DNA of 64,000 nt, from positions 2,790 to 66,789 of the forward strand of contig NZ_CAMZFB010000010.1 of the NCBI RefSeq assembly GCF_947305955.1, given 5' to 3'. The notes beneath the pieces are model-generated. The model searched no databases, was not told the origin of the DNA, and saw nothing but the letters and a program-made list of their open reading frames with translations. Position numbers and translations under genes: made by a program. Origin of the DNA: an uncultured Brevundimonas sp. Lineage in GTDB: Bacteria; Pseudomonadota; Alphaproteobacteria; Caulobacterales; Caulobacteraceae. Shown piece after piece: positions 25,787 through 27,967 of this stretch (positions are counted from its first letter, which is position 1; each line of letters starts with the position of its first letter).

Positions 25787-26332
25787 ATGTCCCTGCCCCT
25801 ACTTCCTGACCGCGATTGCGGTGGCTGCGTCGAGTGCTGCCGTTATATCCCGCTGGACCTGCCCGAGCTGGCCAAGCCGACGGGGCAGCTGTGCCACTAT
25901 TGCGTCGACGGGTCGGGGTGTTCGGTGCATGCCATCCGTCCGCAGACCTGCCGCATCTGGTTCTGTCTGTGGCGGGCGGTGGAGCTGTCGGATGACTGGC
26001 GGCCGGACCGCAGCGGCGTGATCGTGCGCCCCGATGGCGTGCAGGAAGGGGTCATCACCCTCTATGTTATCCGCCCAAGCGAGTTTCTGGCGACCGAAGA
26101 CTTCTTTGCCACCGTCGCCCATTGGGTGGCCGAGGGCATCCAGATCGCCCTGTCGGTACCGGGACCTGAAGGCACCTATCCGGTGCGGGCGGTGGTGACC
26201 GACTATCTGCGCCCGTCCATCGAGGACGGCGATATGGAAGCCTTTGTCACCCACCTGTTCGCAGCGCTGGACAGCTTGTCGGCATCGGATTTCCAGCCCG
26301 ACGGCATCACCGCCCGTTACGAAGTCGCCTGA
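25787..26332 (+). CDS. YkgJ-like Cys-cluster (Fe-S/Zn) protein
   Basis: Cys pattern CGGCVECC...C..C...GC..HAIRPQTCR..FC. Confidence 0.75.
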   Translation: MSLPLLPDRDCGGCVECCRYIPLDLPELAKPTGQLCHYCVDGSGCSVHAIRPQTCRIWFCLWRAVELSDDWRPDRSGVIVRPDGVQEGVITLYVIRPSEFLATEDFFATVAHWVAEGIQIALSVPGPEGTYPVRAVVTDYLRPSIEDGDMEAFVTHLFAALDSLSASDFQPDGITARYEVA

Positions 26333-26372
26333 CGGCCTTCATTTCGGGCGGAACGCGGCCTATCTGAAGCCC

Positions 26373-27167
26373 ATGCCTATCGCCCGACTGAACAGCCGCG
26401 CCGTCATCACCGTCATCGGCCCCGACGCCCGCCACTTCCTCAACAACCTGCTGACGCAGAATGTCGAGACGCTGGAGGCGGGTGCCTTGCGGTTCGGTGC
26501 GCTGCTGACGCCGCAGGGGCGGCTGATGCTGGACCTGTTCCTTTGGGGCAAGGACGACGGCGTGTGGCTGGACGTTCCCGCCGACGCCCGCGACGCATTG
26601 GTGCAGCGCCTGTCCATGTACAAGCTGCGGGCCGATGTTCAGATCGCCGCATCCGATGCGGGCGTGTTCGTGGCATGGGACGAAGCGCCCGAAGGCTTTA
26701 GCCCTGATCCGCGCCTTGAGGGGCTGGGCCATCGCGCCATCGGCTTTGACGGGGCCACCACCGCATCCGAAGAGGACTGGCACGCGCACCGCGCCGCGCT
26801 GTGCGTGGTCGAGGCCGCGTTCGACGCGCCCAAGGACAAGATCTATCCGATCGAAGCGAACTTCGACCTGATGAACGGCATCGACTTCCACAAGGGCTGT
26901 TTCGTCGGTCAGGAAACGACCTCGCGCATGAAGCGTCGCGGCACGATCAAGAACCGCATCCTGCCCTTCACCTATGACGGCGATGCTCCTGCCGTGGGCG
27001 CCGAGGTGCTGAACGGCGAACTGCGCGCAGGCGAGGTGACCAGCGCCGCAAACGGGCACGGCATGGCGATGATGCGTCTGGACCGGATGGACGGCGTGCT
27101 GACGGTCGATGGCAAGCCGGTTGTCGTGAACCGACCCGATTGGGTCCCCGCCCTTCCCTCAGAATAA
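26373..27167 (+). CDS. ygfZ: Folate-binding Fe-S repair protein YgfZ
   Basis: Signature KGCFVGQE, plus LLTPQGR and LSMYKLRA. Confidence 0.92.
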   Translation: MPIARLNSRAVITVIGPDARHFLNNLLTQNVETLEAGALRFGALLTPQGRLMLDLFLWGKDDGVWLDVPADARDALVQRLSMYKLRADVQIAASDAGVFVAWDEAPEGFSPDPRLEGLGHRAIGFDGATTASEEDWHAHRAALCVVEAAFDAPKDKIYPIEANFDLMNGIDFHKGCFVGQETTSRMKRRGTIKNRILPFTYDGDAPAVGAEVLNGELRAGEVTSAANGHGMAMMRLDRMDGVLTVDGKPVVVNRPDWVPALPSE

Positions 27168-27173
27168 ACCCAG

Positions 27174-27329
27174 CCCGCGTCGGGTCGGGAGATCCCGAAG
27201 GGTCGACGACCGCGGGCAACTCAAAATGCCCCGCGTCGGGTCGGGAGGTCCCGAAGGGCCGACGATCGCGGGCGAACTTAAAACGCCCCGCGTCGGGTCG
27301 GGAGATCCCGAAGGGTCGACGATCGCGGG
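27174..27329. repeat. Three tandem 43-bp structured repeats (period 56-57 bp)
   Basis: Unit CCCGCGTCGGGTCGGGAG(A/G)TCCCGAAGGG(T/C)CGACGA(C/T)CGCGGG at 27174, 27230 and 27287, separated by 13-14 nt A-rich linkers. Confidence 0.95.
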
Positions 27330-27356
27330 CGACATAAACACCCTCTTGCCAAACCG

Positions 27357-27371
27357 GAACATTCTGGCAAC
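27357..27371 (+). promoter_or_regulatory. Degenerate alphaproteobacterial LexA box upstream of tag
   Basis: GAAC-attctgg-CAAC, one mismatch to GAAC-N7-GAAC, 8 nt before the ATG. Confidence 0.5.
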
Positions 27372-27379
27372 ATTGTTCC

Positions 27380-27967
27380 ATGACCGATGCCACACTGTCC
27401 CGCTGCAAATGGTGCGGCACCGACCCGCTCTATGTCGAATACCATGACACAGAATGGGGCGTGCCCGAGTACGACAGCCGCGCCCTGTGGGAAAAGCTGG
27501 TGCTGGACGGGATGCAGGCGGGGCTGGCGTGGATCACCATCCTGAGAAAGCGCGAGGGCATTCGCGACGCCTTCGCCAATTTCGATCCGGACAAGGTCGC
27601 CGCCTTTGACGAGGCCGACATCGAACGGCTGCTGAACGATGCCCGCATCATCCGCAGCCGATCAAAGATTATAGCCGCCATCGAGAGCGCCCGCCTGTTC
27701 GTGCAGATGCGCGATAATGGCGAGGACTTCAGCCAATATCTGTGGTCGTTCGTCGGCGGCAAACCGATCCAGAACGTCCTGATCGAAGGCGAGCCCTATC
27801 CGACGCAGAGCCTTGAGAGCGTCGCCATGTCCAAGGCCCTGAAGAAGCGCGGCTTCAAATTCGTCGGCCCCGTGATCGTCTATGCCTTCATGCAAGCCGT
27901 CGGCATGGTCAACGACCACATGATCACCTGCTTCCGGCATAGCGAGGTCAGCGAGGCCGACGCCTGA
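27380..27967 (+). CDS. tag: DNA-3-methyladenine glycosylase I
   Basis: Motifs RCKW, YHDTEWG, QAGLAWITILRKRE, GFKFVGP and GMVNDH...C. Confidence 0.96.
   Translation: MTDATLSRCKWCGTDPLYVEYHDTEWGVPEYDSRALWEKLVLDGMQAGLAWITILRKREGIRDAFANFDPDKVAAFDEADIERLLNDARIIRSRSKIIAAIESARLFVQMRDNGEDFSQYLWSFVGGKPIQNVLIEGEPYPTQSLESVAMSKALKKRGFKFVGPVIVYAFMQAVGMVNDHMITCFRHSEVSEADA

Follow-up and report, generated by a model that had tools for sequence, protein, structure and literature searches.

REP/REPIN-RAYT systems combine palindromes that carry GTAG at the 5′ end with a cognate RAYT, a Y1 HUH transposase (PF01797) that is usually flanked by REPs. A transposase-less kind, the CGTC-tagged REPs of alphaproteobacteria, was described by Di Nocera, De Gregorio and Rocco in 2013 (PMC3733652). 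A CGTC motif, or TGTC or CCTC in its place, stands at one side of their stem-loop. Members of CGTC-1 to CGTC-4 have a stem of 8–9 bp, which opens with two A-T pairs, and a loop of 4–5 nt. They lie behind ORFs that are convergent or unidirectional, in many cases no more than 20 bp past the stop codon, are occasionally intragenic, and are mostly arranged as head-to-head dimers, head-to-tail arrangements being negligible (PMC3733652). Brevundimonas is absent from the species in the text and supplements of that survey that were examined, and literature searches on Brevundimonas REPs or on the sequence of the unit described below returned nothing relevant.

The locus described here lies in a window of 64,000 nucleotides, the whole stretch of DNA analyzed, from an uncultured Brevundimonas sp. 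In our opinion, with a probability of about 80%, the array between the genes ygfZ and tag is made up of one small palindromic DNA repeat in three head-to-tail copies, a non-coding, non-autonomous, and selfish element that is specific to Brevundimonas, REP-like, and set in a mosaic, BIME-like landscape of intergenic repeats.

The closest known kind is that of the CGTC-tagged REPs. Both are short GC-rich palindromes with a conserved asymmetric CGTC motif that reads TGTC in some copies (PMC3733652), both have a short tail with CCA or CA after the stem, and both belong to alphaproteobacterial hosts. Shared too are the location, mostly no more than a few nt from the 3′ ends of convergent or co-directional genes, the occasional in-frame intragenic copy, the occurrence of head-to-head heterodimers, and the lack of a dedicated RAYT or other transposase. 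The Brevundimonas unit differs in being longer (a 43–45 bp core) and compound, with bulges. Its CGTC lies within an extra outer stem, where the first two bases can pair, and not at a free end; unlike in CGTC-1 to CGTC-4, the stem opens with G-C pairs past the tag and the loop is a 3-nt GNA; and its arrays are mostly head-to-tail (17, against 4 head-to-head). Because of the compound hairpin with its extra outer stem, the GNA loop, and the head-to-tail dominance, we place the family outside CGTC-1 to CGTC-4.

With the REPs, BIMEs, and REPINs of E. coli and Pseudomonas the family shares dispersed extragenic palindromes, a conserved tag, mosaic clusters, placement after genes, and a patchy occurrence among relatives. 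It differs from these REPs in its copy number, which is 1–25 per genome and not hundreds, and in that direct arrays are commoner than inverted doublets. The GTAG tag of the REP/REPIN-RAYT systems is absent from the unit, in which CGTC or TGTC is followed by GGGTCG.

Three repeat units between ygfZ and tag

The initial annotation had reported three 43-bp units, and both TRF and a pattern search against shuffled sequence agree with it. The near-identical units (27174–27216, 27230–27272, and 27287–27329) are joined by A-rich linkers of 13–14 nt and recur with a period of 56–57 nt (TRF: 2.8 copies, 92% matches, score 276). A degenerate 43-nt pattern has 3 matches in the window compared with 0.00 expected from shuffles. 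The full repeat unit is 57 bp long and contains a 43-bp compound hairpin. The variable positions are as the annotation had said: copy 2 has G/C where copies 1 and 3 have A/T, and one further position is C or T. The array starts 6 nt past the TAA stop codon of ygfZ and ends 39 nt short of the ATG of tag. It has the same orientation as both genes, the identities of which, as first proposed, are upheld by Pfam. The features of the locus are as follows.

26244–27167, plus strand: ygfZ-like gene for a CAF17/GCV_T folate-binding protein, the upstream neighbor (Pfam PF25455, 2.4e-18; PF01571, 6.7e-7)
27156–27167, plus strand: tail-like remnant CCCTCAGAATAA, which provides the final codons of ygfZ and its TAA stop and resembles the family tail CCCACTCAGAATG
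27171–27228, plus strand: unit 1, type A, A-T subfamily; 5′ CAG, hairpin 27174–27216, A-rich tail AACTCAAAATG; covariance model R1 77.8 bits, E 9e-19 (G000:C10:29960-30017)
27227–27285, plus strand: unit 2, type A, G-C subfamily; hairpin 27230–27272, tail GAACTTAAAACG; R1 65.4 bits (C10:30016-30074)
27284–27341, plus strand: unit 3, type A, A-T subfamily; hairpin 27287–27329, tail GACATAAACAC; R1 66.3 bits (C10:30073-30130)
27354–27373, plus strand: motif CCGGAACATTCTGGCAACAT immediately upstream of tag, outside the array and conserved in array-less congeners (spacer comparison with G006 and G022)
27380–27967, plus strand: tag, 3-methyladenine DNA glycosylase I, the downstream neighbor (Pfam PF03352, 5.8e-78)

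The remnant may be the trace of a fourth repeat unit. In the window segment 27140–27167, the C-terminus of YgfZ extends about 5–6 residues beyond those of its congeners, and the final codons with the stop (CCC TCA GAA TAA) are tail-like; the 3′ end of ygfZ may have been remodeled by the repeat. The motif CCGGAACATTCTGGCAACAT is probably the control region of tag itself and not part of the repeat.

By its position 3′ of the ygfZ stop, the array is untranslated. No promoter-like site was found near it. A unit does not offer the GC hairpin followed by a U-run of an intrinsic terminator, its plus-strand tail being A-rich, and the minus strand of the array gives only weak terminator matches, through a partial 5-bp stem. 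A look-up of the exact Tag protein for further strains of the species and a metagenome scan for the species-specific ygfZ-tag spacer gave no match.

Compound hairpin, subtypes, and covariation

The compound hairpin proposed for each unit is borne out, with one addition: the lower stem has two near-equivalent registers, TCG-gg-TCG/CGACGA or a TCGG bulge with GTCG/CGAC, each about 97% paired over 77 type A copies. Single units have minimum free energies of −24 to −28 kcal/mol with modest z-scores (−1.1 to −2.9). The fold of the whole array likewise stands only modestly above shuffles (z −2.6 for the plus strand and −2.0 for the minus strand).

The family comprises two subtypes, A and B, which differ in their apical hairpins: GGGAG-R-TCCC-GNA-GGG-Y-CGAC in type A, to which the window units belong, and AGAAGGC-GGA-GCCTTCT in type B. 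Common to both are the invariant 5′ tag GCG-TCGGGTCG, the C-GNA-G loop, and the A-rich tail, which measures 11–13 nt (e.g., CCCACTAAGAATG). The tag is asymmetric, (C/T)GTC-GGGTCG, and its 10 nt are invariant over more than 30 species. The CGTC form is near-invariant in the 77 type A copies, with TGTC variants in, for example, C9b, L110, and L169. The tag is enclosed by an outer stem of 6–7 bp, GGCCGCG/CGCGGCC or GCCCGCG/CGCGGGC.

The loop reads GNA in 67 of 70 type A and all 22 type B copies and is closed by a 5′-C/G-3′ pair, N being free; the counts among the 70 are GAA 37, GCA 20, GTA 5, and GGA 5. The minus-strand cUUCGg loop to which the initial annotation drew attention is indeed present in all three window copies but is no feature of the family. 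Both apices thus end in the same way as the d(C-GNA-G) DNA mini-hairpin, which is unusually stable in single-stranded DNA (PMC13037366, PMC3201870): a GNA triloop, a 5′-C/G-3′ closing pair, and a free N. An upstream module found beside many copies, GCGCGAAGCGC, also carries this motif. The mini-hairpin is a physico-chemical motif and not a genetic element, unlike the repeat, the single-stranded state of which is putative.

That the pairing is under constraint, as was first suggested from a single co-varying pair, holds for the family as a whole. Over the ten copies of the home genome, 96% of cells pair, and both-sided changes occur at 7 of 13 scored pairs. In the 77 type A copies, the R-Y pair of the apical hairpin is G-C in 67, A-U in 9, and G-U in 1. 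The outer stem covaries as well, one of its pairs being G-C in 56 copies and C-G in 17, and other pairs having A-U or U-A variants. The compensatory pair of the window units is therefore real and recurs in the family, but it did not arise as a change within the array. Since the A-T form is seen at several loci in several species, the A-T/G-C/A-T pattern of the window reads as two pre-existing subfamilies side by side, each of which is also present at several other loci, and not as compensatory change in situ.

Of the two strands, the plus strand has the more stable fold in 99 of 108 type A copies, and its advantage is about 2.4 kcal/mol. Because the copies are near-identical, this advantage belongs to the consensus and does not count as independent evidence.

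Distribution, site occupancy, and gene context

The home genome, a 2.83-Mb assembly in 90 contigs, contains 10 copies on 4 contigs, on which the pattern search, nhmmer, and covariance model R1 all agree. Three form the ygfZ-tag array (C10), four belong to the repeat-rich stretch with which contig C25 begins, two are on C9, and one is on C5. The count is a lower bound, because one copy sits at a contig end. Copies stand behind the stop codons of aconitase and ygfZ, one abuts the purH stop, and a cluster adjoins an AT-rich islet downstream of uvrB. These copies bear directly on another account of the array, namely that it arose in place by neutral tandem duplication and is without relatives elsewhere. 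Adjacent units that are 92% alike would fit such a duplication; the 7 further copies on three other contigs of the same genome, together with well over 100 in other Brevundimonas genomes, refute it and leave it practically no chance.

The islet beside the C25 cluster (G000 contig C25:932-2804, minus strand; L007) is an AT-rich gene pair coding for a 253-aa protein without a Pfam match and an AAA_21/AAA_15 (AbiEii-like) ATPase. It is a candidate defense islet.

Of 36 sampled Brevundimonas genomes, 21 have the element according to model R1, at 1–25 copies each. Among 24 genomes of five other families of the order, the model gives one marginal match only. Within the family, the element is present in 7 of 11 genomes of the genus and as 2 single copies in 139 genomes of the other 26 genera. 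Named records that match a type A 19-mer include B. lenta, B. diminuta, B. sanguinis, B. bullata, B. vesicularis, B. terrae, B. viscosa, B. kwangchunensis, B. denitrificans, and B. vancanneytii, along with many metagenome-assembled genomes; the few matches in unrelated GC-rich genomes are chance-like. At loci selected by the 19-mer, the covariance model confirmed 81 + 48 matches. Plasmid and phage collections contain no match to the repeat unit. The repeat core is near-invariant across species whose flanking genes are only about 75–80% identical.

Site occupancy is not conserved, as two loci show. Both ygfZ and tag are present in all 36 sampled congeners, and in none of the 36 does the element lie between them. 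The spacer in G006 and G022 is about 90–100 bp long and carries unrelated CCCC...GGGG hairpins. Across congeners (L045–L077), the spacer is a variable slot of about 90 bp to about 3 kb, in some cases with other genes; small secreted-protein-like ORFs occur in some of these spacers (e.g., in G026 and G027).

The second locus is dapF (PF01678). In at least 6 species, B. sanguinis and B. vancanneytii among them, one and the same site of this gene holds exactly one 57-nt unit of the family to which the ygfZ-tag units belong, in frame as 19 codons; it reads ...GRVGSGDPxGSTTAA..., and the dapF of the home genome is without exactly those 19 codons. A unit that an essential enzyme can carry as passenger codons behaves as DNA and not as an RNA gene. 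In this respect the family resembles the Rickettsia palindromic elements and other in-frame intragenic REPs, with one unit in frame in an essential enzyme gene and other copies intergenic; it differs from the Rickettsia elements in that most copies are intergenic and no sequence relation exists. Taken over all sampled genomes, the family is dispersed, genus-specific to Brevundimonas, patchy among species, and insertion-polymorphic.

The arrangement of copies was assessed on 131 non-redundant copies, which occupy 105 sites. A single copy stands at 83 of the sites, whereas 17 hold head-to-tail (direct) clusters, 4 hold head-to-head pairs, and 1 holds a tail-to-tail pair; all 4 head-to-head pairs are heterodimers of a B unit on the minus strand followed by an A unit on the plus strand. 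The classifiable gene contexts, which come from a crude GC3-based ORF caller that leaves 54 of the 105 sites unclassified, are 15 convergent, 16 tandem, and 2 divergent, so that copies lie mainly past gene 3′ ends. The distance to the gene end is at most 30 nt in 29 of 98 cases. In tandem contexts, 9 copies are sense and 7 antisense (p = 0.8), i.e., there is no orientation bias. A 6:1 sense bias seen in an early sample of best-scoring copies was sampling noise, as this larger set shows.

Among the options named in the initial annotation was a new modular RNA, whether a multi-module sRNA or a 3′-UTR protein-binding array. On such a reading, the units would form a dedicated structured RNA, a multi-hairpin 3′-UTR element or an sRNA derived from a 3′ UTR, with a role in protein binding, in the control of ygfZ or tag, or in trans. 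Several observations are what an RNA-level role also predicts: the location after genes (at 6 nt from the ygfZ stop, in the orientation of ygfZ and tag), the avoidance of divergent promoter regions, the better plus-strand fold, and the covarying pairing. Another is found on C9, where two sense-oriented units lie between the aconitase stop and its canonical intrinsic terminator. Against these stand the 9:7 split of orientations, the translated unit in dapF, the dispersed and patchy occurrence, with no element found in 15 of the 36 congeners and none in the ygfZ-tag spacer of any, the lack of a promoter-like site near the array, and the interchangeability of the loop N and of the entire apical hairpin (A for B). 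Nor does a known RNA family account for the units: an Rfam search at permissive thresholds gave chance matches only, of which the best, mir-2005, scores 25 bits compared with a threshold of 61.4 and is a chance match to a GC hairpin. A dedicated RNA function of the units is thus unlikely, and we hold the specific proposal of a regulatory or trans-acting RNA to be distinctly improbable.

The REP-like repeat, the last of the three options named in the initial annotation, is the one that the evidence favors. It follows that the claim of novelty, which by that annotation's own account a match to a REP family removes, is in substance lost.

The ygfZ message would probably include the array as its 3′ end. 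In E. coli, REP hairpins stabilize or attenuate transcripts. By analogy, the hairpins of the array could incidentally stabilize or attenuate the ygfZ transcript, which would be a side effect and not a dedicated RNA function.

Mosaic surroundings, turnover, and possible modes of spread

A second palindromic repeat, GGGCGCTA(T/A)CGCTCGC..GCGG..CTCGCTGCTTGAGCGC, is more abundant in Brevundimonas than the element studied here; it stands directly after stop codons and is often in tandem. It occurs upstream of the element at L083, L086, L089, L115, L116, L136, L155, and other loci, and in the home genome, for example, at C5:23001-23042. The frequent order is the second repeat, then a mini-hairpin GCGCGAAGCGC-CAG, and then the studied element. 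In other species, this order constitutes a mosaic, BIME-like intergenic architecture.

Binding by gyrase, IHF, or a nucleoid-associated protein has been proposed for E. coli BIMEs. The Brevundimonas units could likewise serve a chromosomal protein of this sort as a DNA site, either double-stranded or cruciform, and be kept for chromosome organization without being selfish. An asymmetric 10-nt tag that is invariant in more than 30 species, the clustering with other repeat modules in mosaic arrays, and the 9:7 orientation split, which a function independent of orientation would fit, all agree with such a site. With 1–25 copies per genome and none found in many congeners, however, the units are too few and too patchy for a general architectural role; site occupancy is not conserved, and no candidate protein has been identified. 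We regard this reading as improbable.

The cluster on C25 can be compared with its orthologous cluster in Brevundimonas sp. CGS5Y2-bin82, UBA5713, and B. terrae, and the comparison reveals turnover in place. At one orthologous position, with identical outer stem and tail, the apex is of type A in one species and of type B in another, and copies have been added or truncated between species. These apex swaps, gains, and truncations point to exchange between copies, whether by gene conversion or by recombination.

In four Brevundimonas species, two non-coding spacers that separate repeat copies are 92–98% identical, as compared with about 77–79% for ygfZ and tag DNA. This conserved block lies at G000 contig C25:61-468 (L007), L079:4757-5139, L131:1592-1981, and L169:6890-7237. 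It has no Rfam or tRNA match, and in two species its neighbors are small conserved ORFs (63 and 108 aa) that lack Pfam matches. The block could be an unrecognized conserved non-coding element or part of a mobile region. An Rfam search of the C25 and L079 clusters gave no match, and a tRNA/tmRNA search found none in the repeat clusters.

One of the 17 direct clusters is a tandem array of type A units at L187:6486-6702, in Brevundimonas sp. LjRoot202, immediately beside a tRNA gene. Its period is 53 bp, and its CTACTAGCCG linkers are identical. Four units match the model, and a fifth, partial unit lies upstream of this segment. The units are alternately of the GACC and of the GATC variant. A block of two units seems to have been amplified here locally and recently.

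The attC sites of integrons, with their R″/R′ cores RYYYAAC ... GTTRRRY, bound gene cassettes and are accompanied by an IntI integrase. The unit could be likened to such a site of an integron-like cassette system, the outer stem corresponding to the R boxes, the bulged TCGG to the extrahelical bases, and the apical hairpin to the variable terminal structure. The architecture is analogous, in that the outer stem is conserved, the bulge is on one side only, and the apical hairpin varies; stop codons are often on or beside the unit, the ygfZ-tag spacer of congeners ranges up to about 3 kb, and units flank small ORFs of unknown function in L079 and L169. The unit lacks the RYYYAAC/GTTRRRY core sites, however; units adjoin through 13-nt linkers with no cassette between them, both orientations occur, and copies follow ordinary housekeeping genes or, in dapF, lie in frame. 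For these reasons, we consider a cassette system of this kind very improbable.

A REP-like repeat without a transposase of its own remains our preferred reading. A RAYT was considered as its mobilizer and rejected: PF01797 has no match in the home genome, which is 99.99% complete, and among the 36 congeners it is found in two, of which G013 is without the repeat and G033 has it, so that the two do not correlate. Copies would spread as DNA, most likely via a single-stranded hairpin form, the tag of which would be recognized by a trans-acting host enzyme or by another enzyme. Arrays would expand through duplications at the locus, unequal exchange, and gene conversion from one copy to another. 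It should be noted that the family may be called mobile on account of its distribution alone, no transposition event, target-site duplication, or mobilizing enzyme having been identified, and that the near-invariant core across diverged species could reflect selection for some function in the cell and not a recent spread.

A more specific version of this reading can be formulated. The family would be the substrate of a non-RAYT mobilization or recombination system acting on single-stranded DNA hairpins, with the CGTC-GGGTCG tag as the recognition or cleavage site, the C-GNA-G mini-hairpin as the folding nucleus, and the swappable apices (A or B) as products. We judge such a system conceivable, if unlikely. 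If real, it would offer a tractable entry to how transposase-less alphaproteobacterial CGTC-type REPs multiply. Solo-tag breakpoints after CGTCGGG, of which there are 3–4 examples, were considered as evidence of site-specific cleavage and set aside, since slippage between TCGGG direct repeats explains them equally well.

The REP-like reading removes a false lead, in that the array is not a new riboswitch-like or sRNA family. It also documents a compact REP-like family of Brevundimonas, with a modular anatomy, a low copy number, and clean filled and empty sites in dapF and the ygfZ-tag spacer. REP-like families break assemblies, and one contig of the home genome indeed ends in a copy; they create spurious ORFs, and they can remodel gene ends and protein loops. 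How CGTC-type REPs spread was left open by the 2013 survey (PMC3733652). Since no RAYT goes with it, the Brevundimonas family could serve as a small model for this process.
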